53,711 nt of DNA from a virus (taxonomy: Duplodnaviria > Caudoviricetes): positions 1 through 53,711 of IMG/VR virus record IMGVR_UViG_3300014050_000031; one strand, written 5' to 3'. Made by a program: the position numbers and the translations under genes. Under the pieces are notes generated by a model. It had not been told where the DNA came from and searched no databases. It saw only the letters and a list, made by a program, of their open reading frames with translations. Below are positions 5,330 through 50,726 of the stretch, piece after piece. How positions within the stretch are numbered: the first letter of the stretch is position 1; the number at the start of each line of letters is the position of its first letter.

Positions 5330-5594
5330 AGGATAGATCTACTTGTATCCCCAAGACGTGGGCTAATGCCATTACGTCTTTTTGTGACGCATAATTCTTG
5401 TTGCCTTTTTCAAAATAGGGTGTGCTCATGTACTTTTGTATCCTTTGGTAATCAAGTTCATTTTCAGAGCATACTTTTAACAAAGAGGATTGCTTTCTCT
5501 TTATTTGTAACTTGATTAGTTGCCTCAATCGGCTGTTGCTTCTAAGAACGCAGTACTTGAAAGAACTCAGTTCAATTGGATCATCATTTGTCAT
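5313..5594 (-). CDS. Hypothetical protein, possible HTH DNA-binding protein
   Basis: 93 aa, basic. SLLKVCSENELDYQRIQKYM and VMALAHVLGIQV resemble an XRE-type HTH. Confidence 0.5.
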   Translation of the reverse strand: MTNDDPIELSSFKYCVLRSNSRLRQLIKLQIKRKQSSLLKVCSENELDYQRIQKYMSTPYFEKGNKNYASQKDVMALAHVLGIQVDLSFKVLK

Positions 5595-27532: not shown

Positions 27533-29758
27533 TTATTGGGTTTTTTGTTCTTTTAATGCCTCAATGATGAGGTTAAAGTTCTGTTCCTGCTCTTTTTTGA
27601 GCATATCAAGTTGAGTCTGTTGTTCCATCGTGCGATTCTTTAACTCCTCCCTTAACATTTGGAGTTGTCCTTTGTTCTCGGAACGAGCCCTGTCAACTTG
27701 AATTTGTTTCTCAGTATCTCCAATGATTTGCTGTTGAGCCATCTGTTGTTGCATCATCATTTGCTGTTCTTGCGATTGTTCCGCTTGAGATGCTTTTCGG
27801 TCCTGGAGTGCAAGGAACTTCTTGACGCCTTCTTTTGTGTCTGGATTGAATAAAAGAACCATAGCCTCAGAAATGCTTAGGCTGTTGGCCTGTACAGCGG
27901 AACTAACAAGTTGCTCAAACTTCGGTCTATTGTTCATAATATCATCGGAGTTAACCTTGATAAAAATACCATAATCCTGAAGAGGTACATCTTCGTCAAT
28001 CTCCATAATGTCAACACCGATTTCTGATACGATTGGCTCATACTGCTCCTTTAAGAATGGGAAAATGGTCTTGATGTAGTTTGCGTACTTCTGTAACAAC
28101 TCGTTCTCAAATATTTCAAAAGCCTTGTTCAACGGCTGTGTAATCAGGCTGCTCTGCATAACGGCCATTTGGCTTACACCCACAAGGGCATCGCCTTTCT
28201 GGAAGCCTTGACGAGCATCATTGATTCCGGAAATCTTGTCAATCTCCATGTCGATGTACGATGCCAGGTTCAAATACAGATTAATGGAATTCGAAATACC
28301 CGTGTCAATGCTTGGGAATGGGTTACCGTTAGGTGGCACCGCTTCCTGTCCGCTACTCGTAAACGCAATACCGGAGGTCTTCAGGTAGTACATCACGTCC
28401 TGCAACTGCAGGTTGTCCGGCTTGTAGCGAAGGTCGTAGACAAAACCCTTACGGCCGGCCGTGGACATCTCCTGCTGCACGGTATACATAATTAGGTCCT
28501 TAAACTCCTGCAAGGCAGACATCTCCTCGACCTTGGATACCGTCCTAAAGTTGGTGTACTGAGGGGAGATAATCGTGTAGCTGTACTCGGCTTTCACCGG
28601 GTTGTCAACGCTGTCCCTAACGATGTTGTTCATCTCGCCCCACTCTTTTACGACGCTTGACCCCACAAGGGTTGCCTTGCGGATCGTCTCAATATTCCTC
28701 GTCTCAATGCGTCCACCGTGCTCTTTCTCCTTCTCTGTCAACTTAGGCTTTTCGTCTTTCCCAAGGATCTTGACGTGCTCACCTCCGTATTGGTCTACGG
28801 TTACCTTGGCTCTTACCTGGCGGATGTCTCTCCACTCTGCGTAAAACACCAAGCACATGAATTGGTTGTTTACGGTTATGTAAGGCAATAAGAAGTTCGT
28901 GCCGTTCTGCGAATAACCGCCCCATAGCCAAGAACCTTGGTCGTATCTTATCTTGTTCAACTCCTCAAGCGTCAATCCATAGGTGTCGCAGACTTCCGTA
29001 ACCGGAGCGTAGCGCCACTCGCCAATGAATGCCGAGGTGCTAAAGCTGTCATCAAAGACATAAGGATCCACGATGACATAGCGTGGGTCTACACGGCGGA
29101 TGTGTGGCTTTCCGTACTTGAGTTCGTGCTTGCCAATAGCCCTGCCGGTAATGAGGATGTCCCTCCAAAAGGCAAGCCTTGTTTGGACATACTTGTCTCT
29201 TTCAATCTCGTAGCGCAAAATGGAGTCCATCGTGCGCTCAATGGGCTCCTTGTAGGAAGAGCGCATGTAGAGGTCTAATTCTTCTTCAGAGTACGGAATA
29301 AAATCCGGCTCCTTCATCTCAATAAGTTCGCCTGTCGGATCAATCTTTGGAATGACAGACATCATGATTTTCTGGGCAATGATGGAAGACTTCTTCTTCA
29401 TCTTGCGGGATACGGCCTCACGATTCAGCGTCTTGCACGATACATCCAGCTTCTGAATAGCCACCTCTCCTTCCAAGAGGTTGATTTTGTTGCGAATCTT
29501 GTTGAAGTTAATCCAAAGCGCGGGGAGGCTCCGTCCGTTGTAATCCTTCTGCAGGAAGTCAAACTTCTTGGAAAGGTCGTAGTCCCCGTTGTAGAAGTTC
29601 ATGGACCGGTCCATAGCCGTGTAAAGGTTGGGAATGTAACCGTTCGCCACCGTCTGCCCAAGAATAGCCAAGATGGCTTGCTTGTGATAATCCTCCCCCT
29701 TCTGCGAGTCTTGGACCCACATATTGGGGAAAGTTGTTTGTATTGCGGTAGCGCTCAT
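27533..29758 (-). CDS. Portal protein
   Basis: 741 aa directly after TerL. NKIRNKINLLEGE, RRVDPR, ISGINDARQG and a Q-rich C-terminal barrel. Confidence 0.9.
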   Translation of the reverse strand: MSATAIQTTFPNMWVQDSQKGEDYHKQAILAILGQTVANGYIPNLYTAMDRSMNFYNGDYDLSKKFDFLQKDYNGRSLPALWINFNKIRNKINLLEGEVAIQKLDVSCKTLNREAVSRKMKKKSSIIAQKIMMSVIPKIDPTGELIEMKEPDFIPYSEEELDLYMRSSYKEPIERTMDSILRYEIERDKYVQTRLAFWRDILITGRAIGKHELKYGKPHIRRVDPRYVIVDPYVFDDSFSTSAFIGEWRYAPVTEVCDTYGLTLEELNKIRYDQGSWLWGGYSQNGTNFLLPYITVNNQFMCLVFYAEWRDIRQVRAKVTVDQYGGEHVKILGKDEKPKLTEKEKEHGGRIETRNIETIRKATLVGSSVVKEWGEMNNIVRDSVDNPVKAEYSYTIISPQYTNFRTVSKVEEMSALQEFKDLIMYTVQQEMSTAGRKGFVYDLRYKPDNLQLQDVMYYLKTSGIAFTSSGQEAVPPNGNPFPSIDTGISNSINLYLNLASYIDMEIDKISGINDARQGFQKGDALVGVSQMAVMQSSLITQPLNKAFEIFENELLQKYANYIKTIFPFLKEQYEPIVSEIGVDIMEIDEDVPLQDYGIFIKVNSDDIMNNRPKFEQLVSSAVQANSLSISEAMVLLFNPDTKEGVKKFLALQDRKASQAEQSQEQQMMMQQQMAQQQIIGDTEKQIQVDRARSENKGQLQMLREELKNRTMEQQTQLDMLKKEQEQNFNLIIEALKEQKTQ

Positions 29759-31641
29759 TTACGTTGTAGTTTTCCCTCCTTACTGAAAACATAGTCAAAT
29801 CCCTTAAATAGGTCATTGCTTGTCTCTTTTCTTAACAAACGACTTTTGGCTACCGTTCGTAAATTAATCAAGGTAAGGCCCCAAGCATCCACGCGGTCGT
29901 ACTTTTTCTTTTTGTTGTCCGGGTTGTAATTCGCTAAATCCGACAGCAAATCAGAGTATTGGTAGTGCTCAATGTTGGATGTTAGGTCATCGTCAATAAC
30001 GCCAATCATCTGATCCTTAACCATTTCGTCCATGTAAACACCGTATTCAACGACATTCCCCGGTCTGGCTAATTTGCCAATCTTAGGCGGCTTTTTCGCC
30101 AAAAACTTCGTCAAGTCTCGATCTTGGAAGTAAGATATCATCCGGGCCCTGTTTCTTTCAATCAACACCGTGCAGGTGTTCTTCTTGCTGTAGTACTCCA
30201 CCGCTAGGGCGCATTGCTCGTAGGCTTCGTTCATGTCCTTAGGCTTGGCCGTGTACTGCAATACCGCTCCACCGCTGTGCGTTTCCTCCTCCCCCAAGTG
30301 CAGTCCCTTCGCGATGAAGAACGACAGGTCCGAGCCAATGCCCTCCTTCTTGGCGCCATCCGTCGGGTCACACCCGGCGGCATACTGAACATCGTCAGAG
30401 GGTTCCTCCAACATGATGACGTCCCCGTCTTCCTTGGGGATGAATACCACCTTGTCGTTGGATTTACGGAACAGACCTCTCTTCATCTTGGGTGGATGGG
30501 TGTCCAAGTGCGCAATCCGGTTGTTAATCAACTCTACGTCAAACGGCGAATCGCCCACCTGGATGAACATTTCTTCGACCTCCAAGGGATACTGAACAAT
30601 GAAGTCGTAATACCGCTTCATGGACTGCTTACGCTTCTTCTCGCGCTCACTAAGGATGTATTTCAGCCCCTCAATGACGTTCTCGTTGCCCAGCTCGTTG
30701 TCAATCATAAAACCACTCCAGCCGGCAGCAAAGTAGCGAATAAGGTTATAGCCCTCCGCGTTGTACCAAAATTCCTTGAAGTCATCGCCATTCTCTGCTG
30801 CATCTCCCGCCGTACCGGCAAGGATTGGAACGCCCTTCCGGGTGATACCGTCATCCGCTGCTAAAGCCGGCTCCGTGTAGGACCAGTTCTGCTTGAGCTG
30901 CCCTGGGTCCCACTTGCCGGGCTCCTCGTACACCACCATGCGCATACCAGATCCTTCAAAAGAAGTCGGCTCAGGGGAACGACCAAAGATGACCGAGTTA
31001 AGACCCACCTTCTTGATGTTGCCTTCCTTGTCGCGAATCTTCTTGGCGAACTCTAGGCGCGATGCCGAGTTGCCGGCCATGGATGTAGCGCGCAGGAAAG
31101 ACGGCAGGTTGTTGTAACCGGTCTTCAGTACGTCGCTCATAAACTTCTTCATGTCCTCCTCGGACTTGGATGTGAAACCAATCTCCGAATAGGGATTATG
31201 GATCGCCGTGCAGTACATCGCGTTGGCAAGGCTGTAGGACTTGCCCCAACGGCGCCGTCCACCAAGGATGACGCCACTACCGGTATTGTCCGGGTAGAGG
31301 CTTGACTCGCCGTACAGGCAAGACTCAATAAGGTTGAAGAACTCCGCGTTGCACCTGCGAAACTCCGGGGAGATGAGGCCCCCGTTCTTGGACTTCATCT
31401 TCCAAAAGTAGGTGTACATGTACGTCATCCCACAGATGCCATCATGCCCAAATCTCGTCCTGCGTATCTGCTCGTTCTCCCACTTAGACTGCTCGGTCCG
31501 ACTAGAAAATGATGGAATGATCATCTTCTTAGGCTTGTAAGTGGACATCTGTATCTGTCCAATCTTGTCCAAGTAGTATCTGACCCTCTCGTTGATATCA
31601 AAGGCGCTGTTGAAAAGGTAATCAACCAGGCTTTGCTTCAT
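29755..31641 (-). CDS. terL: Terminase large subunit
   Basis: Walker A GRRRWGKS, Walker B VVYEEPGK, coupling motif GTAG, nuclease motifs GCDP, IERN and YDRVDA. Confidence 0.93.
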   Translation of the reverse strand: MKQSLVDYLFNSAFDINERVRYYLDKIGQIQMSTYKPKKMIIPSFSSRTEQSKWENEQIRRTRFGHDGICGMTYMYTYFWKMKSKNGGLISPEFRRCNAEFFNLIESCLYGESSLYPDNTGSGVILGGRRRWGKSYSLANAMYCTAIHNPYSEIGFTSKSEEDMKKFMSDVLKTGYNNLPSFLRATSMAGNSASRLEFAKKIRDKEGNIKKVGLNSVIFGRSPEPTSFEGSGMRMVVYEEPGKWDPGQLKQNWSYTEPALAADDGITRKGVPILAGTAGDAAENGDDFKEFWYNAEGYNLIRYFAAGWSGFMIDNELGNENVIEGLKYILSEREKKRKQSMKRYYDFIVQYPLEVEEMFIQVGDSPFDVELINNRIAHLDTHPPKMKRGLFRKSNDKVVFIPKEDGDVIMLEEPSDDVQYAAGCDPTDGAKKEGIGSDLSFFIAKGLHLGEEETHSGGAVLQYTAKPKDMNEAYEQCALAVEYYSKKNTCTVLIERNRARMISYFQDRDLTKFLAKKPPKIGKLARPGNVVEYGVYMDEMVKDQMIGVIDDDLTSNIEHYQYSDLLSDLANYNPDNKKKKYDRVDAWGLTLINLRTVAKSRLLRKETSNDLFKGFDYVFSKEGKLQRK

Positions 31642-34801: not shown

Positions 34802-35254
34802 CTAAGGCTCAATAGTTTCGTTTGATCGCACCAAAGAGACCGTGTTTGAAACCAAATACCTCCCCCTATCGCCAACAAAAGCCATGTTGTGGTTAATCAA
34901 CCACTCCTTCCCGGACTTTACCATCCAACCCTCGCTAACCAACCCTTTAACCGCCTTGTGGTACGAAGATCGATCGGGCCTCTTCCCCACAATAGGTTCC
35001 ACCCACTCACAATACCCCTGAAACTCCACCTGTACCACCCTGGAACCACTCTTCAGCCTAGTCATAACGTACATAGCCAAGGCAATCTCCGATGGCTTTA
35101 GCCTAATTAAAGCCTCCAACCCGGGAATAAACATCTTTACAAACCTCGCCCTGTCCCATGCGGACCTCCCTAAAACACTAATACGCTCATCCGAAAGGAA
35201 TTCCTCCCCCGTCTGAGTATCCACAAGCTGCCTCTTCCTTAAAAACTTTGTCAT
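34802..35254 (-). CDS. RepL-like winged-helix protein
   Basis: VDTQTGE, FVKMF, SSYHKAVKGL and WLINHNMAFVGDR match the plasmid RepL-type pattern. Confidence 0.65.
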   Translation of the reverse strand: MTKFLRKRQLVDTQTGEEFLSDERISVLGRSAWDRARFVKMFIPGLEALIRLKPSEIALAMYVMTRLKSGSRVVQVEFQGYCEWVEPIVGKRPDRSSYHKAVKGLVSEGWMVKSGKEWLINHNMAFVGDRGRYLVSNTVSLVRSNETIEP

Positions 35255-35297
35255 ACCGCAAAATAACCCTTTTTAACCACGAATGTTCCTCTAAATG

Positions 35298-35337
35298 TGG
35301 TGATTTTGGCCACATTTTTGGTGAATTTGGCCACATT
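35298..35337. repeat. Two 19-bp direct repeats with 21-bp period
   Basis: TGGTGATTTTGGCCACATT (35298) and TGGTGAATTTGGCCACATT (35319), upstream of the RepL-like gene. Confidence 0.8.
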
Positions 35338-36544
35338 GTGAATTATATGTCAATAAAAAACGCTGTTTTTGATATCGCTAGGGCACTTTTTTAGTACCCC
35401 CCCAATTTCCCTCTATATAATAATATAGATATAGCACTCGCTATTCAAATAGGGATCTCTGTGGATGGAATTTTGGAAATTGTATGGATAGGATTTTGGG
35501 CTTTACCCCCAATTTTTCTAGTTCAGTTTCAAAAATAAAAGTCATCCCCCCCTATTCGTAACATTGAATAAACAATCCATTAGTCAATCTATTGTTACAA
35601 CAATATATTTAGTTTTGCTCTACTACATTTAGTGCATCATTTGTTACAACAATGAACACAATTAGGCAATGTTATAACAATGATTGATTTTTATCATAAA
35701 AAAAATGATGACAAAAAAACAATGATGTGTTATATAACAATGCTATTGCTCGTCTAATGATACGACAAAATTGTAATCAATGTTATAAATAATTGCTCTA
35801 ATAAATCTTTTGGAATATAAAGTGGTTATGTTATAACATATTGTTTATCATAGTATTGTTACAACACATTGTTTTTCTAATGACTAAAAATATATCAAAA
35901 CTTATTTTTATTTTTGAGCAAAAATAATGATGACTAACTCGCATTGTTATAACACATTATTTTGGTTAGCAATGTTATGAAAAAGGAAAATCAATAATCT
36001 TGGTAAGTGGTTATGTTATAACAAAACCAATGATTGCACAGGATGTCTTGTTTTGTAACACAAGTTTTATCTAATTCGTGTAACACATCGTTTATCTAAT
36101 TGTGTAACACATCTTCTTATAACACATCTCTTACCAAATCCATATTGTTTTACAAATGGTTGTGTTATAACAAAACTACTTTGTACTGAGTACAGGTGTA
36201 TTCATAACACATTGTGATTTTTCATCTCATATTTTTATTGGAAAAATAGGATTACTCATAACACATCATTTTTGTAACAAATGATTTTATGTATGTGGTT
36301 GAATTTTATGTTGTTATAACAAAACGATACACCCCACCAAAACCTCTAATGCAAAACAATGTGTTACGATACACCCAAAAATTACTAAAAGTTTTTATTA
36401 CTACACTATTCTATAACATATTACACAATTATTAGTGCTTGTAGGTAATACGGAAAAAATAAATCATTGTTGTAACAACAAATTCACTATCGTGGGCATA
36501 TAGCAAATCCAGGGTTTTGCTACATTTCATAACACATTCTACAA

Positions 36545-36563
36545 AAAGTCTACTATAGTATAC
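36545..36563 (+). promoter_or_regulatory. Near-palindrome AAAGTCTACTATAGTATAC, copy 1
   Basis: Exact 19-mer found five times, plus one variant. Confidence 0.75.
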
Positions 36564-36600
36564 CTTTGTTGATAGGCAATTTTCGTAACACATTCCACAT

Positions 36601-36622
36601 AAAGTCTACTATAGTATACTTT
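36601..36622 (+). promoter_or_regulatory. Near-palindrome, copy 2
   Basis: AAAGTCTACTATAGTATACTTT, 22 bp with one asymmetric pair. Confidence 0.75.
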
Positions 36623-36706
36623 TAAAATCAAAAATAGGAATCCATAACACATCTCACATCGTGTCGGTAAACTGTCAACCAAAATACCGCTTTATTGCAT
36701 TGTAGG

Positions 36707-36741
36707 GCTATTTGTAATTTGAGGTTTCTTTTGTATCTTTG
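36707..36741 (+). promoter_or_regulatory. Bacteroidota sigma-A type early promoter P1
   Basis: GCTA-TTTG (36711), 19-nt spacer, TATCTTTG (36734). Confidence 0.75.
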
Positions 36742-36790
36742 GATATCGTTAGTAAAGGTCGCAGTGATGCGTAATGTGTTACAACGATTC

Positions 36791-36806
36791 GTTCTTTGAC
36801 ATATTG
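36791..36806 (+). promoter_or_regulatory. rrn boxA-like antitermination element
   Basis: GTTCTTTGACATATTG about 50 nt downstream of the P1 -7 box. Resembles boxA (E. coli TGCTCTTTAACA). Confidence 0.55.
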
Positions 36807-36967
36807 AAAAAACTAAATAACACAATGTGAGTAATGTTCTCGCAAAAAAATTGTGTTATACTTTTTCGGATTGGCTTTGGGTATGCATTCCCATAACAAT
36901 GCATAAATCGGATAAGTGCAAATCCTCATAACATTGCACAAAAACATAACACAAAATATATATTGTT

Positions 36968-37795
36968 ATGAATAAGTCAGTTTTGAATGCCGTTGCTTTG
37001 TTTGTTGCTCTTCCTTCGGTTCGCAACATCGTGAAATTTTCTGATGTTAAGAAATTGCTTAGTGAATTGCGTAACATTAGACACAATCGGTTCCTAAAAT
37101 TAGTGGAATTATCTAAATTGTGTTACAATTTTCGTGTTTACTTTAATTCTGCTGAATGCAAAGAGTTAAGGAAGAAAAAGAAAATTGATGTTACGATGGA
37201 GGATGTAATCAGTGTTACATTCAATATGGGCAAAGCCTATTTTTACCGACTTGCTACAATGGGGAAATATGTTACGAACAACCCCGAAAAAGTAGGTCAA
37301 TTCATAACATTGAATGAAGCTTCGCCTACAGAATATGTTATGGATGCTACTACTTTTAACGATTTTTGTAGTGGTAAAACAAAGGACAAAAAAGAACCCG
37401 AACCAAAGGATGAAGATAATTCATCTGATGTTACGGATGCTTTAGAATCTCACGATAGGCAATTAGAACAAGAGCAAGAAGCAAGAGAGAATGAAGCCAA
37501 AGAGGTGGTGTTTAATATGTTATACAAAGGTCAAGGCATAACAATATCCAAACATAACAAAGGTGGATATGTTACCGAACTACATAACATTGAACCTACC
37601 GATTTGAAAGAGTTCTTAAAAAATGTAATTAATGTTATGCCTACAATCCTGTTGGATGCAAAAAGGCATCAGCCATTTGGTGTAACACATTACTTAGACA
37701 CAAAGTCCAAGAAGTGGATTACAGACTATGGTAACATTAAATTAACAAAACCTCAGCGTGAAATCGTAACACAAAGCATAAAAAATCACGCATAA
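36968..37795 (+). CDS. First early gene, hypothetical 275-aa protein
   Basis: Long ORF between P1 and a strong terminator. Carries 17 TGTTAY/RTAACA sites. Confidence 0.8.
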   Translation: MNKSVLNAVALFVALPSVRNIVKFSDVKKLLSELRNIRHNRFLKLVELSKLCYNFRVYFNSAECKELRKKKKIDVTMEDVISVTFNMGKAYFYRLATMGKYVTNNPEKVGQFITLNEASPTEYVMDATTFNDFCSGKTKDKKEPEPKDEDNSSDVTDALESHDRQLEQEQEARENEAKEVVFNMLYKGQGITISKHNKGGYVTELHNIEPTDLKEFLKNVINVMPTILLDAKRHQPFGVTHYLDTKSKKWITDYGNIKLTKPQREIVTQSIKNHA

Positions 37796-37805
37796 TGTGT
37801 TACAG

Positions 37806-37835
37806 ACCCCTTGCTTTCGCAAGGGGTTTTTTTTT
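37806..37835 (+). terminator. Intrinsic terminator
   Basis: ACCCCTTGC-TTTC-GCAAGGGGT followed by a T-run. Confidence 0.9.
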
Positions 37836-37991
37836 GCCCATACTTTCGTAACACAAGACTAACTAATTGCCTTCATAACACATTGTTGTACGCCTGGACT
37901 TTGGTGCAAAACTCGATCGAGTACGAAAAAAAAGTCACTATCACTATCATATGCGATGCGGTGCGATGCAGCGTAACAAAACAAAACCGGG

Positions 37992-38013
37992 AAAGTCTAC
38001 TATAGTATACTTT
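37992..38013 (+). promoter_or_regulatory. Near-palindrome, copy 3
   Basis: AAAGTCTACTATAGTATACTTT. Confidence 0.75.
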
Positions 38014-38067
38014 TTGAATAAATCTCGCAAGTAGTGGCGAACCAATGCGATGCGCTCCGTTGAACAG

Positions 38068-38107
38068 TAAATGCTATTTGTCAAATGAGATAACTTGCCT
38101 ATCTTTG
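38068..38107 (+). promoter_or_regulatory. Sigma-A type early promoter P2
   Basis: TAAATGCTA-TTTG (38077), 19-nt spacer, TATCTTTG (38100). Confidence 0.8.
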
Positions 38108-38143
38108 TATTATTGAATGCTACACCATAGAGACGCTACCAAA

Positions 38144-38162
38144 AAAGTCTACTATAGTATAC
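38144..38162 (+). promoter_or_regulatory. Near-palindrome, copy 4
   Basis: Exact 19-mer, 37 nt after the P2 -7 box. Confidence 0.75.
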
Positions 38163-38174
38163 TATTCATTTGGA

Positions 38175-38435
38175 ATGCCGATGCCAATACCAAGTAGGCA
38201 AAATCTAAAACATTTTTATATGTTTTACTTAGTTGATAGTCCTTACATCAAGGACAAAAGATTGGCAGAAAATTATCTGCAAAAAGGAGATACAAGGTAT
38301 CTCAAAAACAAACCGATGGCTTTGTTTGAACCAATGCCCACGATAGACCCTAAATGGGTATCATCAAGGAAAGAGCGTAGGAAACATCGCTTCAGCAATC
38401 AGACATCAGAATTCATTCGTATTTCTAAACAATAA
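38175..38435 (+). CDS. Hypothetical early protein
   Basis: ORF lying between palindrome copies 4 and 5. The true start may be the ATG at 38220. Confidence 0.55.
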   Translation: MPMPIPSRQNLKHFYMFYLVDSPYIKDKRLAENYLQKGDTRYLKNKPMALFEPMPTIDPKWVSSRKERRKHRFSNQTSEFIRISKQ

Positions 38436-38453
38436 AAGTCTACTATAGTATAC
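38435..38453 (+). promoter_or_regulatory. Near-palindrome, copy 5
   Basis: Exact 19-mer abutting a stop codon. Confidence 0.75.
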
Positions 38454-38478
38454 TAATTCACAAACTCAACTCAAAACC

Positions 38479-38733
38479 ATGTCAAACCAATCCTCCCGTC
38501 CCCTGTACCAAATCGCCGGTGAAATAGCGATGAATTGGCCCAAGCCCTATTTTGGTGCCGTACCCTACCTTGAGGCTATGCATAGCCTAAATTCATTGTC
38601 GGATAACTATTACGACGACTCCGCGGAATCCGTAGTCCGGTATTTTCTCAGCAATGCGACGACCTGGAAAGGCGAATCCGCAAGACGAATCAAGGCAGAA
38701 CTCAACTCAATGCTCAAAAGCCATGCCAATTAG
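38479..38733 (+). CDS. Hypothetical early protein
   Basis: RPL..IA.EI...W..PYFGAVPYL.AM..L...YFLSNATTWKG motif is familiar from phage early regions. Confidence 0.8.
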   Translation: MSNQSSRPLYQIAGEIAMNWPKPYFGAVPYLEAMHSLNSLSDNYYDDSAESVVRYFLSNATTWKGESARRIKAELNSMLKSHAN

Positions 38734-38830
38734 AGAAATCCTAAAGACCTTGTTTGTTGCCGCACTCGGCATCCTTGGTCTGTATGCATTAACGCGAGCA
38801 TTCCTATTCCTTACAACCCTTTATCCCTAA
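38723..38830 (+). CDS. 35-aa membrane peptide (not in the ORF track)
   Basis: Hand translation MPIREILKTLFVAALGILGLYALTRAFLFLTTLYP. Fills the gap. Confidence 0.5.
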   Translation: MPIREILKTLFVAALGILGLYALTRAFLFLTTLYP

Positions 38831-38834
38831 AATC

Positions 38835-39014
38835 ATGACCGAATTGTATCGACGCAGACAAATCAACAAGGCCGCTAAATTGCTCAACGAGGGCAATATC
38901 GAAGGCTTCAAAATATTGGAAGAACTTATTGAAAAGGAAGAGAACAAAATTACCGCTATGTTCCTTGAAAGATTAACCGAGGAACTGAAGCTTCAAATCC
39001 CCACAAAGCCATGA
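38835..39014 (+). CDS. 59-aa hypothetical protein (not in the ORF track)
   Basis: MTELYRRRQINKAAKLL...; ATGA overlap with the next gene. Confidence 0.65.
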   Translation: MTELYRRRQINKAAKLLNEGNIEGFKILEELIEKEENKITAMFLERLTEELKLQIPTKP

Positions 39015-39328
39015 GCCTAAACAAAACAAGAGAGGAGATGATGGCCATATTGGCCGAATCCCTGCAGACCGAGGACCCGAACGAAAGGATATTCATACGA
39101 ACGGTGGATGAATTCTATGGGAACCAAGTCCCGGTATCGGAGAAAGGAGGCATATGGACTTCCGGTGAAAGCGGATATACCTACAAGGGCAGAACCGCAT
39201 TCAATTACTACAACGAATCCCCGCAATACCAATCCGGCGTATACAAACCACTTGCAAACATGCTTGAAAAGCACGGTTGGTATGCCGAATGGTACGACCC
39301 AGGAACAATCTTTATCTTTGAAATCTAA
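39011..39328 (+). CDS. Hypothetical early protein
   Basis: 105 aa ending GWYAEWYDPGT. Coupled start. Confidence 0.75.
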   Translation: MSLNKTREEMMAILAESLQTEDPNERIFIRTVDEFYGNQVPVSEKGGIWTSGESGYTYKGRTAFNYYNESPQYQSGVYKPLANMLEKHGWYAEWYDPGTIFIFEI

Positions 39329-39340
39329 CCAAAACAAACC

Positions 39341-39370
39341 AAACTCCGGGATGGGAGATATACCAAACAA
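39341..39370 (+). repeat. 30-bp leader element, copy 1
   Basis: AAACTCCGGGATGGGAGATATACCAAACAA, 27/30 identical to 42006-42035. Confidence 0.75.
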
Positions 39371-39378
39371 AATCTGCT

Positions 39379-39843
39379 ATGGGACTAGACATGTATCTAT
39401 CCAAGAAAACCTATGTCCAAAATTGGAGCCATATGGCTCCCAAAGAGAGGCATAGTGTAACCGTCAAGCGTGGTGGCGTAGATGTACCACACATCAAGCC
39501 CGAACGGGTATCCTACATCGTGGAGGAAATCCACTCGTGGCGTAAAGCAAACCAAATCCACCGGTGGTTTGTAGAAAACGTCCAAGGCGGAATGGACAAC
39601 TGCGAGGAGTATTTTGTGTCAAGGGACAACCTCAAAGAGCTATTACAGGAATGCAGGAGAGCCCTTGAAAACAAAGAATCGGCATCCGACATACTACCAA
39701 CAGCGGAGGGATTCTTCTTTGGGTCAACAGATTACGACGAGTTCTACCTCCAAGACATCAAAGAAACCGCAGAAATGTTGGAGAAACTCTTTGAAGAGGA
39801 ACCCGAAAACGAATGCGACTTCTATTATCAATCATCCTGGTAA
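39379..39843 (+). CDS. Hypothetical phage protein (MGLDMY/WRKANQIH type)
   Basis: MGLDMYL, WRKANQIHRWF, GFFFGS and YYQSSW motifs. Confidence 0.85.
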   Translation: MGLDMYLSKKTYVQNWSHMAPKERHSVTVKRGGVDVPHIKPERVSYIVEEIHSWRKANQIHRWFVENVQGGMDNCEEYFVSRDNLKELLQECRRALENKESASDILPTAEGFFFGSTDYDEFYLQDIKETAEMLEKLFEEEPENECDFYYQSSW

Positions 39844-39880
39844 ATGCTATTTGTACAATGAGACATAAGCGGTACCTTTG
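39841..39880 (+). promoter_or_regulatory. Sigma-A type early promoter P3
   Basis: TAAATGCTA-TTTG (39850), 19-nt spacer, TACCTTTG (39873). Near-duplicate of P2. Confidence 0.8.
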
Positions 39881-39905
39881 TATTAATGAATTCAACAACA
39901 AATAA

Positions 39906-39927
39906 AAAGTCTACTATAGTGTACTTT
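39906..39927 (+). promoter_or_regulatory. Near-palindrome, copy 6 (variant)
   Basis: AAAGTCTACTATAGTGTACTTT, 26 nt after the P3 -7 box. Confidence 0.7.
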
Positions 39928-40232: not shown

Positions 40233-40760
40233 ATGCAAAAAATTCAGTTAGGTAGCAGCGTGGCCGTATCCGACCCATGCTACGAGAAGGCAGAGAAAAC
40301 ATTCGATAATGTGTTATCAGGGAACTATGTTCCTTTTGTGCGTAGCTTATTACTCAAAAATTGGGGCAACCGAATCGGAGCGTTGGTGTGCGTACATGAA
40401 TCATTCGTCAACGATGAGTTGACATGGGAGGAAAGGGGCGCAATCGGCGTGGACTCAGGCCAAGCGGGAATCTTCTCCTTGGAGACCTACCAAAAAGACG
40501 AGGCCGTAGTTGGCCTAACGCCTTACGATTTCAAGGGCGGTCATCCCGACATGGAAGATTTTTGGTATCGAGTATGTTGCAACATAACCAGTGGAGAACG
40601 ATCATGGGGCACTTACGACAAGGGTGTTGTGAGTTCGTCGGGCTTAGGCGATGGATGCTACGATGTGTATGTGGCCAAGCACGGAGAAAAAATTGTAGGC
40701 ATCTACATTGACTTTGGTATTTACGAAGACCCCGACTTTCATTTTTACTTATGCGCCTGA
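40233..40760 (+). CDS. DUF4241-like protein
   Basis: VSDPCY, GVDSGQAGIF and SSGLGDGCYDVY motifs. Confidence 0.7.
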   Translation: MQKIQLGSSVAVSDPCYEKAEKTFDNVLSGNYVPFVRSLLLKNWGNRIGALVCVHESFVNDELTWEERGAIGVDSGQAGIFSLETYQKDEAVVGLTPYDFKGGHPDMEDFWYRVCCNITSGERSWGTYDKGVVSSSGLGDGCYDVYVAKHGEKIVGIYIDFGIYEDPDFHFYLCA

Positions 40761-40797
40761 ACACCCTCTTTTTTCCTTTCCACCTAAACCCATCAAT

Positions 40798-41244
40798 ATG
40801 AAAACAACCTATGTAAAATCCCGCCAAATCACCTGTGTATCCGAGCCTTCAGTCTTTGAGAAGGTAAAGATAACAAGCCCAGACGCTGCCGAAAGATTCG
40901 CCCGACAATTCTACCACGAGGACATTGAACTCTACGAGTCCATGTTCATCATGATGCTGAATCGTGCCGGCATGGTCACATCCTACGCCAAGATATCCCA
41001 AGGTGGAACATCCGGAACGGTGGCAGACCCAAAGATCATCGCCAAGTACGCGGTGGATGACCTATGTGCTAGCGTAATCCTCGTGCACAACCACCCATCA
41101 GGAAACAGAGAACCCTCGCAAGAGGACAAAGACTTGACGAAGAAAGTGAAGCAAGGACTAGCAATGCTTGACATCAAACTGCACGACCACATCATCCTAA
41201 CCACAAGCGGATACACATCCCTTGCAAACGAAGGACTAATCTAA
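40798..41244 (+). CDS. radC: RadC-type JAB domain protein
   Basis: E.MFIMMLN, ISQGG..GTVADP, ILVHNHPSG..PSQED and LHDHIIL motifs. JAB domain only. Confidence 0.9.
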   Translation: MKTTYVKSRQITCVSEPSVFEKVKITSPDAAERFARQFYHEDIELYESMFIMMLNRAGMVTSYAKISQGGTSGTVADPKIIAKYAVDDLCASVILVHNHPSGNREPSQEDKDLTKKVKQGLAMLDIKLHDHIILTTSGYTSLANEGLI

Positions 41245-41278: not shown

Positions 41279-42007
41279 ATGCCAAAAGTAGTATATGTGG
41301 ATGGCGGCAACCTGTTTGTCGTATCCAAGTCTCCGTCTTCCAACAAGAAGATCACCGGCTCCAATGCGGACATCGTGCAGACCTACACCTTCAGCCTTGA
41401 GCAGTACCGGCTAGCCAATTCGGGGATGAAGTTCACAATGAAGGAGTTCTTTGCCCTGGACTCATCGTGTTGCCTTGACTGCCCATTCTCAGGCAACCAA
41501 CGGGCCAAAGACAAATCCCTCAAGCAGGGATGCTATACCCACAAGTTCATGCAATACACGGGATTCCTATCCATGCTACGCCACATCAAACCACAAGATG
41601 TAACCCTCTTGGATGACGATAAGCGTAGACGCATTGTAAGCCTCTGTGACGCATCGTATGTCCGCTTTGGTACCTATGGTGAGCCAAGCCTTATGGATGC
41701 AACCTTGGTCTCCCAAATGGCCCGTGTGGCAAAGGTATGGACAGGCTACACCCACCAATGGGCCAAGCCGTGGGCCAAAGAGTACGGCTCTTGGTTTATG
41801 GCATCCGTGCACACCGAGTCGGAGGTCGACCTGGCAGAGCAGTTGGATTACCGATCGTTCCTATCCAAGGGAGCGGATGACCCTGTATCTGGGGTCGTAT
41901 GTCCTGCATCCAAGGAGGCGGGATACAAATCAACCTGTGACAAATGTGGCCTATGCTCCGGCACGATGGGCAAGGGCAAGAAGAATGTAACAATCAACCT
42001 ACACTAA
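41279..42007 (+). CDS. Cys-rich phage protein, possible metal/Fe-S enzyme
   Basis: CCLDCP..GCY, VRFGTYGEP, WTGYTHQW and CPAS..CDKCGLC motifs. Confidence 0.7.
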   Translation: MPKVVYVDGGNLFVVSKSPSSNKKITGSNADIVQTYTFSLEQYRLANSGMKFTMKEFFALDSSCCLDCPFSGNQRAKDKSLKQGCYTHKFMQYTGFLSMLRHIKPQDVTLLDDDKRRRIVSLCDASYVRFGTYGEPSLMDATLVSQMARVAKVWTGYTHQWAKPWAKEYGSWFMASVHTESEVDLAEQLDYRSFLSKGADDPVSGVVCPASKEAGYKSTCDKCGLCSGTMGKGKKNVTINLH

Positions 42008-42035
42008 ACTCTGGGACGGGAGATATACCGAACAA
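42006..42035 (+). repeat. 30-bp leader element, copy 2
   Basis: AAACTCTGGGACGGGAGATATACCGAACAA, ending 7 nt before the ATG at 42043. Confidence 0.75.
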
Positions 42036-42042
42036 CTTTTAT

Positions 42043-42639
42043 ATGCCAAATTGGTGCTCAAACTTTCTAGTCGTATCGGGAGGTACGCCAGAAAACCTCA
42101 GCTTAATTGCTGAAAAATTCTCAGACCCATCCAACAACAGGGTCTTTGAGTCACTCATCGGTAGGGATCCTAAATTCGATGAGAAGGATTGGTACAACCA
42201 CAATTGTGCTACCTATGGCACAAAGTGGGACATCAATGGTGACGAATACATCCTCAATCCGACTGACGATTTGGGTGGATTCTCTGTGAGTTTTGACACG
42301 GCTTGGAGTCCTGCGACTCCGTTCGCCCTTGCCTTGTCCAAGAAGTACGGCGTTGATGTGCGGCTTGAGTACGAGGAGTGTGGATGTGACTTTGCCGGTT
42401 GGATGACTGCATCATCGGGAGAACTTGGCGAAGATGTGCAGATGGATTACCACGAAGGCAAGTATGCCATGGATTCCGATCGCTATATGGAGTGCGAAGC
42501 AGAATCTCTCATAGAGTGGGCCATCAATGACGAACTTACCGAGCAGGAGTTCATTGATAAGCACTTGCACTTTATGAGCGAGAGAGACAGAGAGAATATC
42601 CTACAAGACTTCAGAGACTTACAAAAAACTAACCCTTAA
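42043..42639 (+). CDS. DUF1281/YubB ferredoxin-like fold protein
   Basis: MPNWCSN start, WY......YGTKWD, FDTAWSP and YEECGCDFAG motifs. Confidence 0.8.
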   Translation: MPNWCSNFLVVSGGTPENLSLIAEKFSDPSNNRVFESLIGRDPKFDEKDWYNHNCATYGTKWDINGDEYILNPTDDLGGFSVSFDTAWSPATPFALALSKKYGVDVRLEYEECGCDFAGWMTASSGELGEDVQMDYHEGKYAMDSDRYMECEAESLIEWAINDELTEQEFIDKHLHFMSERDRENILQDFRDLQKTNP

Positions 42640-44418: not shown

Positions 44419-44610
44419 ATGAGCGACGAAACAAAATGGATTAAATGTTCCGATCGGATGCCCGAGCAAGACACTCCGGTGCTGATTTACACAACCGATA
44501 TGTATCAAGCAATGGCTTGGCTATCGAACAACCGTTGGTACTACGAACACCAAACTTGGTTCCTCTCCGAAGTGAGCCACTGGATGCCCCTACCCCCTAA
44601 CCCTTTTTAA
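44419..44610 (+). CDS. DUF551-like protein
   Basis: WIKCSDRMPE...VSHWMPLP. Confidence 0.85.
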   Translation: MSDETKWIKCSDRMPEQDTPVLIYTTDMYQAMAWLSNNRWYYEHQTWFLSEVSHWMPLPPNPF

Positions 44611-44869
44611 CCCAATCAAAATGAAAACACCAAGCGAACTAAGAGACTATTTTGCAGCAAAAGCCCTTGAAGGGAGATTTTCAAACGATTCATTGTATCG
44701 CTCAATATTTATGAATGCAGGTCATGACACAAGAGACAAAGAAAAAGACACTTATGAGGACTATATAGCCCAACAGTGCTATAAAATGGCAGACGCTATG
44801 ATGAAAGAGCGAAAGATTCTATTGAATGCCCCTACCCCCTAACCCTTTTTAACCCAAACAAAATGAAAA
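44584..44869 (+). repeat. 44-bp direct repeat pair bracketing one gene
   Basis: 44584-44627 and 44826-44869, 43/44 identical. Confidence 0.9.
44621..44842 (+). CDS. Small phage protein (LRDYFAAKA type)
   Basis: LRDYFAAKA...CYKMADAMMKER motif. Confidence 0.8.
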   Translation: MKTPSELRDYFAAKALEGRFSNDSLYRSIFMNAGHDTRDKEKDTYEDYIAQQCYKMADAMMKERKILLNAPTP

Positions 44870-45267
44870 AAGATTTTATCCCCTACGAACAAGCCCTTGC
44901 ACTCAAAGAGCTTGGGTTTGATGAACCTTGTTTTGGTGGTTATTATTCAAATCAAGACAATGTAAATCTTTGGTTTTTCAAGGAGGCAAAAAATTCAGAT
45001 AGGGATGAAAGAGTAAGAGAAGGATTTGCAACAGCACCAACCTACTCACAAGCATTTAGATGGTTTAGAGAGAAGCATAACATACTTGCAACAGTGTACT
45101 CTAACGCATCAGGTTATCTGTATGAATGGAGCGACAATGTAGGCGGTACTCATAGAGGTTGGTCTGATTATGAAGGACCTAATGACGGCGGAGTATGGGA
45201 TACCTACGAAGAAGCAGAACTTGCCTGCCTTAAAAAACTAATTGAACTTTTAACCCAAACAAAATGA
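44863..45267 (+). CDS. Hypothetical Bacteroidota-phage protein
   Basis: FIPYEQALALKELGFDEPC, APTYSQAFRWFREK and TYEEAELACLKKLIE motifs. Confidence 0.8.
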   Translation: MKKDFIPYEQALALKELGFDEPCFGGYYSNQDNVNLWFFKEAKNSDRDERVREGFATAPTYSQAFRWFREKHNILATVYSNASGYLYEWSDNVGGTHRGWSDYEGPNDGGVWDTYEEAELACLKKLIELLTQTK

Positions 45268-45605
45268 AATACAAAATCTTTCATCACCGCGACAACAGTT
45301 ATGACATCATCACGGAGGACGGAGGCGTAGCTGCGTTCTACCACAATGACGAGTGCTTTGTCACGCACTATTATCAGAGAAGCCTCAGCGAGTGCAACCC
45401 TGCGAACTACGTGTGGGACGAACTATCCGAGGGCAAAATCTACATCAAGGATTGGGAGGGTGACCCGAAGGTCAGCGAGGTAATCATGGACGCATTAGAG
45501 TGGCTTGTGTTTCCCGCACCCGCAGAAGGATGGGAACTCGATCAAAGTATTTGGAATGAGTTTTTTCCAACAACTGAAGTATTCAATCAAGCCTTAACTA
45601 TTTAA
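45264..45605 (+). CDS. Hypothetical protein
   Basis: 113-aa ORF lying between boundary repeats. Confidence 0.7.
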   Translation: MKYKIFHHRDNSYDIITEDGGVAAFYHNDECFVTHYYQRSLSECNPANYVWDELSEGKIYIKDWEGDPKVSEVIMDALEWLVFPAPAEGWELDQSIWNEFFPTTEVFNQALTI

Positions 45606-45615
45606 CCCAAACAAA

Positions 45616-45804
45616 ATGAACAACGAACTTTTAAAAGCAACCATTCATGTACTCAGATGCCTCAAGACAGACGCTGAAATGGCTCTGAGTGGCGATTGGG
45701 ATACTACAACTCAGGAAGGTATTGACGAGGGCTTTGAGGCTCAGATATCTTTAATTGAACCGCTCATTGACAAACTAACAAGAGAACTAAACGCTAAACC
45801 ATGA
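45616..45804 (+). CDS. Hypothetical protein
   Basis: 62-aa ORF starting in a boundary repeat. Confidence 0.65.
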   Translation: MNNELLKATIHVLRCLKTDAEMALSGDWDTTTQEGIDEGFEAQISLIEPLIDKLTRELNAKP

Positions 45805-48555: not shown

Positions 48556-50286
48556 ATGAAATACGGATCAGTTTGCTCAGGCATTGAAGCGGCCTCGGTC
48601 GCTTGGCACAACCTCGGGTGGGAGCCGCAATGGTTCTCAGAGATTGAACAATTCCCTTCGGATGTGCTGAAACACCGGTTCCCAACGGTTCCTAACTTGG
48701 GAGATATGACAACCATTAACCAAAACCCAATCGCAGATGAACGACCAATTGACCTTCTCGTGGGGGGAACTCCCTGCCAATCCTTCTCCGTCGCAGGACT
48801 TCGCAAAGGTCTTGCTGACCCACGAGGGAACCTCATGCTTACCTTTCTTTCAATCGCTGATAAACTCCGTCCCAAGTGGATCGTCTGGGAAAATGTCCCC
48901 GGTGTATTGTCGTCCAACGGAGGAAAAGATTTTGGCACCTTCCTCGGGGCGTTGGGCGAACTCGGGTATGGGTTCGCATACAGAGTTCTTGACGCTCAAC
49001 ACTTCGGAGTCGCCCAAAGACGCAGAAGGGTGTTTGTTGTCGGATGGCTTGGAGACTGGAGAGCTGCCGCAGCGGTTCTATTTGAGCGAGAAAGCCTGCA
49101 AGGGAATCCTAAACCGAGCAGAAAAAAGAGGGAAGAAGTTACCACCGATGCTCAAGGAAGCGTTGGAGAGGCAAGTAGTTGGTGGGATGGAAGCCAAGTC
49201 GCAGGAACCTTAACCAAGCAGAATGCGAATGGCGCACAACGGATGCCGGACAAGGATAATTTTGGAGCCATACTTCAGCCAACCATCATTGACCGAGTTG
49301 CCCAACCGATACCAGTACTTGCCGGGCAACACCCAAATAAGGAAGTCGGCATTGATGTATGCCCGACACTACCAGCAGCAATGGGAATGGGTGGAGGTCA
49401 CACTCCATTAGTCCCTCATCCCGTTGCCCAACCGATAGCATTTCAGTCGGTGGATTATGGAGGAGATGCAACGGTGGAAAAAAGTCCTACATTGAGGGCG
49501 CACGACCCAATGGCAGTTGCCCAACCGATAGGAATAAATGGAAATATAGCAGGAACTATTGACGCAAATTATTTCAAGGGATGTGGCTCTGCTAATTTTG
49601 GGGAAAGAGATGTTGTTGCCCAACCGATAGCCTTTGAACCAGGTAAGATGCAAAGGCTTGGGTATGGGTGTTCGGATAATGGCACATCCCCAACATTAAG
49701 GTCAGAGCCTGGCGATAATCAATTAGCCGTTGCCCAACCGATAGCCGTGGACACCTACAATTACACCACCAACGACCACACCACGCAAACCATTCGCTCA
49801 CAATCAGACACCGAGCATATTGGAGCCGTGTTGCAACCCATTGCCGTGGATGTTTACAATCAATCCATTGATGGGCAAACAAGTGCGACAATCACCGAAG
49901 CGGTTGGAGGAACAAATACTTCGGGGCCAAAAGTTATGCAACCGATACCAATTAATACAATGACAATGCTTGGAAGGCCGTCTGATGATAAAAATCCACG
50001 TATGGGACTTGGAATTGGAAATCCGGGAGAGCCACAAAACACGCTTACAAAAACGCACAGTCACGCAGTTGCTACCGGTATGGCCATCCGAAGGCTGACC
50101 CCCAAGGAATGCGAACGCTTGCAGGGATTCCCGGATGATTGGACAAAGATTCCATACCGAAACAAGGAAGCCGACCAATGCCCCGATGGGCCAAGGTACA
50201 AGGCTTGCGGTAACTCAATGGCAGTACCGGTGATGCGGTGGATTGGTCAGCGCATTCAACTAATAGAAAAAATGATGAACAAATAA
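48556..50286 (+). CDS. DNA (cytosine-5) methyltransferase with expanded modular variable region
   Basis: Motifs I (VCSGIEA), IV (GGTPCQSFS), VI (ENVPG), VIII (QRRRRVF), IX (RRLTPKECERLQGFP) and X (GNSMAVPV). Confidence 0.95.
   Translation: MKYGSVCSGIEAASVAWHNLGWEPQWFSEIEQFPSDVLKHRFPTVPNLGDMTTINQNPIADERPIDLLVGGTPCQSFSVAGLRKGLADPRGNLMLTFLSIADKLRPKWIVWENVPGVLSSNGGKDFGTFLGALGELGYGFAYRVLDAQHFGVAQRRRRVFVVGWLGDWRAAAAVLFERESLQGNPKPSRKKREEVTTDAQGSVGEASSWWDGSQVAGTLTKQNANGAQRMPDKDNFGAILQPTIIDRVAQPIPVLAGQHPNKEVGIDVCPTLPAAMGMGGGHTPLVPHPVAQPIAFQSVDYGGDATVEKSPTLRAHDPMAVAQPIGINGNIAGTIDANYFKGCGSANFGERDVVAQPIAFEPGKMQRLGYGCSDNGTSPTLRSEPGDNQLAVAQPIAVDTYNYTTNDHTTQTIRSQSDTEHIGAVLQPIAVDVYNQSIDGQTSATITEAVGGTNTSGPKVMQPIPINTMTMLGRPSDDKNPRMGLGIGNPGEPQNTLTKTHSHAVATGMAIRRLTPKECERLQGFPDDWTKIPYRNKEADQCPDGPRYKACGNSMAVPVMRWIGQRIQLIEKMMNK
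48737..49213 (+). CDS. Alternate-frame ORF nested in the methyltransferase (M.EcoHK31I beta-like)
   Basis: 158 aa in the +1 frame, containing LSDGLETGELPQRFYLSEKACKGILNRAEKRGKKLP..LKEAL. Confidence 0.6.
   Translation: MNDQLTFSWGELPANPSPSQDFAKVLLTHEGTSCLPFFQSLINSVPSGSSGKMSPVYCRPTEEKILAPSSGRWANSGMGSHTEFLTLNTSESPKDAEGCLLSDGLETGELPQRFYLSEKACKGILNRAEKRGKKLPPMLKEALERQVVGGMEAKSQEP
49297..49743 (+). repeat. GTTGCCCAACCGATA x5 (VAQPI linker)
   Basis: Exact 15-mers at 49297, 49423, 49516, 49615 and 49729. Periods 126, 93, 99 and 114 are all in frame. Confidence 0.92.
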
Positions 50287-50291
50287 GTAAT

Positions 50292-50726
50292 ATGCCACGA
50301 TACGAAGAACTTATAGACAAAGTAAAGAAAGCCGTATGCGAAGAGTACGGATGCGATTCCGAAGTAATGAGTGCTAAGTCCGGAAGGAAGAGGTGCAATG
50401 TAGAACCCAGGCACATGGCAATGCATCTATGCCGGAAACATTTGGCAATTAGCTACAAGAAGATAGCCGAGGAGTTTGGCTTATCGGATCACGTTTCCGC
50501 TATGCATGCCCATGATACCATTTCGAGTTTAAGCGAAGTCAATAATAGAATATCCAAGACGATTATCAAGATAGAGTCTGCTCTGCTTCCAGGGCTTTCC
50601 TCCCACAAGCGCGTTGTGTACTACACCTTCTTTGATGGTAGAGTCTGCCATGGTCTTTACAAGGACGAGCAGTCCGTTGTCGATCAGCCAATCGGTCGTA
50701 CAATCCCCATCATCGTGCATCGCTAG
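50292..50726 (+). CDS. DnaA C-terminal (domain IV)-like HTH protein
   Basis: PRHMAMHLCRKH..SYKKIAEEFG.SDHVSAMHA. No AAA+ domain. Confidence 0.8.
   Translation: MPRYEELIDKVKKAVCEEYGCDSEVMSAKSGRKRCNVEPRHMAMHLCRKHLAISYKKIAEEFGLSDHVSAMHAHDTISSLSEVNNRISKTIIKIESALLPGLSSHKRVVYYTFFDGRVCHGLYKDEQSVVDQPIGRTIPIIVHR

Follow-up and report, generated by a model that had tools for sequence, protein, structure and literature searches.

Arrays of binding sites beside a gene for a DNA-binding protein are an already known kind of element. Iteron-type arrays occur in the incC/repA/incA region of the P1 plasmid, in the lambda ori that lies inside gene O, and as the octamer repeats of ori and crr in P4. In lambda, cosB lies upstream of Nu1; terminase fields of this type, the pac fields of small terminases included, have 3–7 sites. 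Phage phi29 forms a p4/p6 complex at its early/late region. The injection-stop region in the left terminal repeat of T5 is described as an untranslated region dense in repeats and palindromes with eight DnaA boxes, for which protein loading has been proposed (10.1101/866236). In prototypic crAssphage, an origin has been predicted directly upstream of repL, the first forward-strand gene (PMC10983915). Here we describe an array of 61 TGTTAY/RTAACA sites at positions 35558–37978 of a tailed-phage sequence (Duplodnaviria; Caudoviricetes; IMG/VR record IMGVR_UViG_3300014050_000031). The whole source record of 53,711 bp, referred to as the window, is a fragment rather than a complete genome. Most likely the array offers landing sites to a DNA-binding protein of the phage, through which replication or gene switching is controlled.

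The 2,421 bp of the zone contain 26 TGTTAY and 35 RTAACA hexamers, a density of 25.2 per kb, compared with 35 sites in the remaining 51,290 bp of the window (0.68 per kb). A preliminary description of this stretch had given about 60 sites in 2.4 kb, or about 25 per kb, with sharp borders near 35558 and 37978, and the recount agrees with it on each point; only its rough background of about 2 per kb was too high. The first site is at 35558, the last starts at 37973, and no 500-bp bin outside 35501–38000 holds at least four sites. The enrichment survives comparison with Markov null models trained on the zone itself, which expect 5.4, 8.1 and 9.6 sites at orders 0, 1 and 2, respectively; at order 3, where the model absorbs the word itself, the expectation is still 35.4 ± 5.6, and the highest count among 1000 runs is 59. 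Alignment of the 61 sites gives the word as YRTAACA in either orientation, with a pyrimidine preceding the R in 58 of them and G absent from both of the positions that follow the core. Scored with a weight matrix derived from these sites, the window has 62 good matches, 55 inside the zone and seven elsewhere. The array is a cluster of repeated binding sites for one protein, as iteron origins are. Searches for known RNA families returned only a sub-threshold U12 match, which was taken as chance, and blastn of the zone against 50,697 phage records detected no similarity.

The left part of the array (35558–36030) is AT-rich and made up mostly of inverted pairs about 25–90 bp apart, which take the form of the 10-mer TGTTATAACA or of TGTTACAACA. 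There are six copies of TGTTATAACA in the zone (at 35670, 35829, 35945, 36014, 36163 and 36312), three of TGTTACAACA (35593, 35642 and 35857) and one of TGTTATATAACA, and six site pairs in −+ orientation have a centre distance of 5. In the middle part (36055–36650), 14 of the 17 sites are in the + orientation as RTAACACAT-type units. This division into palindromes on the left and RTAACACA(T) words further right had been noted in the preliminary description, as had the irregular spacing and two short local duplications, which were recovered here as one repeat family and a 25-bp tandem unit present in 2.7 copies at 36054–36120. A co-occurring strain in sequencing run X4 has one additional 25-bp unit after 36077, and sites therefore arise via local duplication. 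In the relative L012, equivalent units recur every 47–51 bp. The rest of the array (36777–37978) has mixed orientations and includes 17 sites within a gene. No consistent helical period in the spacing was found across the window, L012 and a further relative, L006.

Conservation was examined in four distinct close relatives (L001, L002, L003 and L005), whose identity to the window across the zone is about 93%. All four retain 57 of the 61 sites intact, and variable columns make up 6 of 354 (1.7%) in the motif cores against 272 of 2067 (13.2%) elsewhere (Fisher test, 2.4e-13). As judged from these alignments, the motif cores are under purifying selection. Arrays of the same word were found in four further lineages, with 21 sites in 610 bp in L006, 18 in 536 bp in L007, 27 in 1187 bp in L012 (and about 18 more past a gap of more than 150 bp) and 8 in 255 bp in L045. 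Outside the arrays these loci have 0.5–2.9 sites per kb, and rightward of window position 34518 blastn aligns neither L006 nor L007 to the window. The register of the inverted pairs differs among lineages: the window has 10-mers in which the two sites overlap, L006 and L007 have 12-mers in which they abut, and some pairs are spaced. The single half-site is therefore the unit. Use of the sites in both orientations points to recognition of double-stranded DNA and not to an RNA signal. On this comparison the arrays of sister lineages contain anywhere from 8 to 61 sites, and sites turn over while density stays conserved. The earlier proposal of a selected protein-loading array, as opposed to a tandem expansion, is strongly supported by the conservation of the cores, by the presence of the same word in diverged zones and by the imposition of sites on a coding gene.

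That gene, ORF275 (open reading frame at 36968–37795, + strand), is the first rightward gene and contains 17 embedded sites. It has homologues at 94, 81 and 67% identity that differ by in-frame indels, and a remote family of 13 representatives; by this homology it is a real gene. When synonymous codons were shuffled within ORF275, 7.7 ± 2.0 sites were expected, and when the protein was re-encoded according to genome codon usage, 4.2 ± 1.8; none of 5000 runs reached 17 in either case. Two control genes contained 0 and 1 sites against 0.3–1.2 expected. The L012 orthologue shares 99 identical residues with ORF275 across 299 alignment columns (about 33–36%) and carries 16 sites, compared with expectations of 5.7 by synonymous shuffling and 3.4 by genome codon usage. 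Only four sites share column, phase and orientation between the two genes, so it is density and not position that has been kept. Many of the conserved Val-Thr, His-Asn, Gly-Asn and Ile-Thr pairs in ORF275 are the translated word. The array is written into ORF275 against codon usage, and both the codons and the amino acids of ORF275 are bent to accommodate sites.

The product of ORF275 has no Pfam, PHROGs or NCBIfam match. An AlphaFold2 model (predicted local distance difference test, pLDDT, 77) has a helical N-terminal domain that a disordered acidic linker joins to a small alpha/beta C-terminal domain. Foldseek comparison of the model with the PDB gave nothing at E≤0.001, VIA fold matches did not exceed Z 5.3 (Cdt1 winged helix 5.3, SopB-DNA 4.2, KorB 3.9), and clear structural relatives were limited to four viral proteins without names in BFVD. 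ORF275 was considered as a universal binder of the word and rejected. L006 shares the word, but its first rightward gene is non-homologous (hhalign probability 1%) and carries almost no sites, and the corresponding genes of L007 and L045 appear from reading of their sequences to be L006-like.

These fold matches bear on the idea that the phage has a plasmid-like carrier state, for which the array would be a centromere-like partition site and ORF275 a ParB-, SopB- or KorB-like protein that binds it. We consider this very unlikely. The sites lie before, inside and after ORF275, as parS sites often do; the N-terminal domain matches SopB-DNA and KorB at the Z scores given above and P1 ParB at a Foldseek E of 0.29, and the nearest named clusters in the Atlas include the Borrelia PF49 partition protein (score 0.91, a lead only). 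All of these matches are below the levels that the tools call meaningful, however, and no ParA-, ParM- or TubZ-like gene was found in family scans of most window ORFs of at least 70 aa together with 10 ORFs of at least 150 aa from an extra region of the larger relative G005. Moreover, L006, L007 and L045 share the word, yet the first gene of L006, and apparently also that of L007 and L045, is not homologous to ORF275. A phage-plasmid lifestyle has been reported for crAssphage (PMC10983915), which would be in keeping with a carrier state.

On the other side of the array is gp150 (34802–35254, − strand), the first leftward gene, which lies directly beside the array in every lineage examined. Its product is 39–60% identical among lineages, and the start of the predicted recognition helix and the wing are invariant. 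The order of secondary-structure elements is helix-helix-helix-strand-strand, and the modelled core superposes on solved winged helices, predicting a winged-helix DNA-binding fold. Winged-helix domains dominate the 50 top VIA rows (Z 6.4–7.9), the best matches being the winged-helix domains of Orc2, Cdc6 and ORC1 (Z 7.7–7.9; root-mean-square deviation 2.6–3.3; 83–86 residues aligned), with Zur/Fur/PerR, MarR and LexA domains within 1 Z of them. Foldseek rows were also mostly winged-helix proteins, all at E>0.1. The family is narrow, comprising three clusters. It was absent at E≤1 from all four complete genomes examined from a related clade that carries other repeats (positive control G005, 1e-84), a tblastn search of 50,697 phage records gave no match at E≤1, and six family members had no Pfam match at E≤1. 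We infer that gp150, as the best candidate, is the most likely binder of the array.

A second candidate was a protein encoded at 50238–50726 (+ strand) that matches Bac_DnaA_C, DnaA domain IV, with 62.6 bits against a Pfam cut-off of 31.5. When aligned to DnaA structures, it keeps what we take to be the counterparts of E. coli R399, D433, H434 and H439. The attraction of this protein is that its fold binds 9-mers as a monomer. Its homologue in lineage G001 has a quite different recognition helix though G001 uses the same word, and the protein was set aside, remaining a weak candidate. In two lineages this stand-alone domain IV is encoded close to the 3′ end of a methyltransferase gene: in the window the two genes overlap, and in L017 (1480–1830) a 60-aa ORF separates them.

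The array sits at a strand switch. The leftward genes from 35254 to 5584 form the structural operon, and the rightward genes from 36968 to the end of the window include small early-type genes, RadC, an Api92-like domain, a methyltransferase and the DnaA-domain-IV protein; the array therefore lies exactly where these two gene sets diverge. Both GC skew and AT skew change at this point, and GC content is 0.31–0.34 across 35–37 kb compared with 0.40–0.53 in the rest of the window. Our preferred interpretation, to which we assign a probability of roughly 0.4, is that the array is an iteron-like loading array for gp150 that serves as a replication origin or control region. The roughly 60 YRTAACA sites would be recognised in either orientation by a sequence-specific double-strand DNA-binding protein, and many copies of gp150 would load side by side to form a nucleoprotein complex of more than 2 kb. 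Such an assembly would span the AT-rich interval that separates the leftward structural operon from the rightward early operon and continue through the first early gene, and would act as both replication origin and control region, working like iterons. A primase-helicase, which the relative G005 encodes, would be recruited to it, and occupancy would probably also throttle promoters inside the array. We think that such a complex would initiate or control replication.

This interpretation was judged the most likely because it accounts for the type of site, the adjacency of gp150, the AT-richness and the lineage-specific copy number. Like iteron origins, the locus repeats a short word many times over and on both strands, beside or within the gene for a possible DNA-binding protein, in AT-rich DNA and with a copy number that is specific to the lineage. 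It differs from them in having about 60 sites of 7 bp over 2.4 kb, where iteron origins typically have 4–14 sites of 8–22 bp, in the absence of a recognisable Rep family, and in that a gene which does not necessarily encode the binder has 17 of the sites imposed on it. The predicted crAssphage origin upstream of repL provides a positional precedent in a distantly related type of phage, as it too lies at a strand switch beside a small DNA-binding gene (PMC10983915). RepL is undetectable in the window, in contrast, and the passages on the crAssphage origin describe no motif array (PMC10983915).

Several observations weigh against an origin bound by gp150. The switch in skew coincides with a change in the direction of transcription, which could explain it. 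L045 has just eight sites, so most of the sites in the window would be unneeded for a minimal function. We know of no origin with close to 60 sites over 2.4 kb, 17 of them in a gene. The co-occurrence of gp150 and the array discriminates little because it is confined to one narrow clade that shares many genes. The gp150 model has a pLDDT of only 60 overall (70–86 over residues 50–125). Searches of Pfam, PHROGs, NCBIfam and PDB sequences gave no Rep, RepL or other family match for gp150, and the RepL model PF05732 had no match in the window at E≤10. DnaA boxes, of consensus TTATNCACA, are not enriched, with 45 matches at up to one mismatch in the window compared with 54.8 expected; about six fall in 35558–37978 and about 10 in 35.2–38.5 kb, all with a mismatch, a modestly higher local density in an AT-rich stretch. 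The step to about twice the sequencing depth over 35.4–36.5 kb is sharp and fits a terminal repeat better than origin amplification, and the position of gp150 at the head of an operon with terminase and portal genes also fits a role in packaging.

The last two points lead to an alternative that places the zone within, or next to, a direct terminal repeat or alongside a cos/pac site and makes it a recognition field for the packaging machinery, with gp150 as a small-terminase or Nu1-type winged-helix subunit. We regard this as rather unlikely. The sequencing runs are available as assembled contigs with one depth figure per contig, from which molecule ends, strand and expression level cannot be read; the depth figures are accordingly a hint and cannot prove a repeat. 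Unitigs over the zone have depths of 14.7 (run X1, 35468–36860) and 14.3 (run X2, 35390–36502) against 6.7–9.5 for flanking unitigs from the same DNA runs, and the X1 value fits a 1.1-kb block at twofold depth averaged over a unitig that extends 360 bp further. Unitig or contig breaks occur near 36.46–36.50 kb in X2 and X3, and the contigs of seven relatives (L006, L007, L011, L012, L039, L043 and L044) end inside the zone or at its borders, which are marked by conserved short tandem repeats and a C-rich tract. These ends are scattered over 2.7 kb (about 35.27–37.95 kb), however, as repeats or strain variation would give, and contig ends near the zone are biased by the way in which the contigs were found. 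No terminal repeat is present within the window itself, and flags for direct terminal repeats in the related clade proved to be assembly overlaps of 69–123 bp.

As with lambda cosB and Nu1, a winged-helix gene heads the structural operon directly beside an array of possible sites, and this operon includes the terminase (29755–31641) and portal (27533–29758) genes, both identified by phage-family matches. Unlike in lambda, gp150 is five genes away from the terminase gene, and a 160-aa ORF directly upstream of the terminase occupies the usual position of the small subunit. With 61 sites, the array is also far larger than cosB or the pac fields.

The depth and the contig ends are also the only hints of a terminus here. 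The preliminary description had tentatively placed the zone on first-injected DNA; that placement is not established, and the contig ends could equally be caused by repeats. If it were correct, the zone might be a loading or decoy region on the first-entering DNA. By binding a protein of the host or of the virion, it might promote entry or make it pause, protect the end, or act as a sink for a host regulator or defence protein. We find this quite improbable. Array size varies freely from 8 to 61 sites, as expected of a titrating element, and the hexamer is mildly depleted outside the zone (35 sites versus 51–53 expected at Markov orders 1–3), a deficit that vanishes at order 4 (37.5 expected). 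Against it, host DnaA boxes are not enriched, and among the literature matches listed for the 10-mer palindrome were Zur boxes, integron sites and primers, with none on a phage array. We also know of no host factor that recognises the word YRTAACA. The closest published parallel is the T5 injection-stop region, which is likewise a long region dense in repeats, inverted repeats and palindromes, untranslated and close to a genome end (10.1101/866236). It differs in that T5 uses host DnaA boxes, whereas these are not enriched here, the terminal position of our array is unproven and the array enters a gene.

A combined form of these ideas, which we consider doubtful, is that the array is a large, expandable protein-coating field of 8–61 sites in or next to a terminal repeat, capturing a phage or host protein on the first-entering DNA. 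Its role might then be entry control, shielding of the end or titration of a host factor, and the amino acids of ORF275 would have been rewritten to provide 17 more sites.

A further alternative is that the array functions only as a transcription switch, in which operators for a phage regulator (gp150 or ORF275) coat the divergent region, shut the early promoters and open the leftward operon, an arrangement similar to the p4/p6 complex of phi29. This too is improbable in our view. Promoter-like matches to TTTG-N19-TAnnTTTG, which we take to be the Bacteroidota promoter consensus and hence host-type, occur four times in the window against 1.07 expected; three are on the + strand, at 36711, 38077 and 39850, inside and just after the array. 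The first of these (36711–36741) is upstream of ORF275. On the leftward side, the first site of the array falls between a TAnnTTTG box at 35530 and the upstream region of that box. The inverted pairs resemble operators, and sites within ORF275 could serve as roadblocks. A 16-nt near-palindrome, GTCTACTATAGTATAC, is present at six + strand loci spanning 36548–39924 (36548, 36604, 37995, 38147, 38438 and 39909) compared with 0.15 expected, and the two copies within the array (36548–36619) each lie 19 nt after an RTAACACAT unit. It may be an operator or a 5′-leader hairpin. However, 60 sites, with 17 in a gene, far exceed the needs of an operator, the other early promoters at 38100 and 39873 have no good sites, and the promoter assignments are consensus matches only. 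Copies of GTCTACTATAGTATAC are preceded by AAA, three sit 30–50 nt downstream of promoter-like sites, and variant palindromes are found at equivalent places in L012 and L045.

Contigs from the RNA library of run X3 cover 35694–36459, 36497–37168 and 37142–39364, corresponding to the zone and the early genes, though DNA carry-over is possible. Late genes have little cover or none (bins at 0–5), which is no evidence. The highest summed contig depth in this library, 29.3, is on the start of gp150 and the left border (35004–35670). Cover of the zone is reminiscent of phi14:2, in which the early region opens with long intergenic transcripts at high expression levels and for which no common early motif is reported (10.1101/2020.03.07.982082). 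Promoters of a virion RNA polymerase, as in phi14:2, were rejected as an explanation for the word, as no DFDxD motif was present in the four large leftward ORFs checked, which included those for 3001- and 1605-aa proteins. The 3001-aa ORF (5584–14589, − strand) had neither a PHROG match nor the DFDxD motif, and the 1605-aa protein beside it matches a virion structural family.

The edges of the zone have features of their own. A pair of 21-nt direct repeats lies beside the start of gp150 (35298–35337), with analogous pairs in L006, L007, L012 and L045. At the left border, all lineages have a C-rich tract followed by a conserved 15-mer close to GTAAACAATCCATTA (window 35545–35585), with 2–4 copies of a GGAAATTTTGG-like unit just before it; the corresponding border lies at about 1860–1810 in L006, 620–575 in L007 and 6580–6620 in L012, and in the upstream region in L045. 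Short tandem repeats mark the right border (37935–37969), with a 6-nt unit repeated 2.5 times and a 5-nt unit 3.8 times, and the 6-nt block is kept at the same place in L045 and in L006, where it lies at the contig end. A hairpin followed by a T-run, read directly from the sequence as a terminator, follows ORF275 (37808–37836, + strand).

Members of the related clade L021–L035 (P0011-like, with genomes of about 60 kb) have compact GC-rich tandem repeats of 6–9 nt, located 250–450 bp upstream of an ORF275-family gene, with a word that differs per lineage. Embedding of a lineage's own word in the ORF275-family gene was significant at only 4 of 15 loci (L022, L027, L032 and L033), and an array with embedded sites is therefore not general for the ORF275 family. 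In L032, GroES- and GroEL-like genes are the leftward neighbours.

The window starts within a gene. Its first ORF (2–1114) is missing about 58 N-terminal residues relative to the homologue in the 61.8-kb relative G005, and the truncated gene (1–1114) is of the Laminin_G_3 type and tail-fibre-like. G005 has about 13–15 kb extra, located between window positions 52680 and 1062, encoding a primase-helicase with PriCT_1 and DnaB_C domains, a sigma-70-type factor, a Rad52-like protein and a PDDEXK nuclease; a glycosyltransferase and a methyltransferase are also found in this stretch (L018, G005:C1:1–16900). The early genes of the window include RadC-like JAB and Api92-like ferredoxin-like domains (40708–41244 and 41944–42639). 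Genes of these two types are frequent in anti-restriction regions of mobile elements. Small early ORFs are preceded by gene-start contexts that recur (44581–45632 and 53133), namely a 32-nt family with five members and a 47-nt pair that is 96% identical. The gene for a 576-aa DNA methyltransferase (48556–50286, + strand) contains six copies of a 19–23-nt repeat at 49296–49950, 93–204 nt apart, which may, as a guess, reflect repeated protein modules such as several target-recognition domains.

The terminase is about 20–25% identical to those of crAss-like phages (around 23%), and most of the sequence comes from freshwater metagenome runs, with only a small share in runs labelled as lake water. 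The phage belongs to a poorly known freshwater group distantly related to crAss-like phages. This instance is unusual in the scale of the array, in its having expanded several-fold between sister lineages, and in that a coding gene has demonstrably been rewritten to include the word. If the binder and its role are confirmed, the locus would show clearly, in a natural setting, how a signal at the DNA level can override both codon choice and protein sequence in a phage gene. It would also be a binding array of unusual size, with a copy number that differs several-fold from one sister lineage to another. The 7-bp word is defined, and with gp150 and ORF275 as candidate proteins it is now open to binding tests, which would give a handle on the start of replication or the early-to-late switch in these distant relatives of crAss-like phages.

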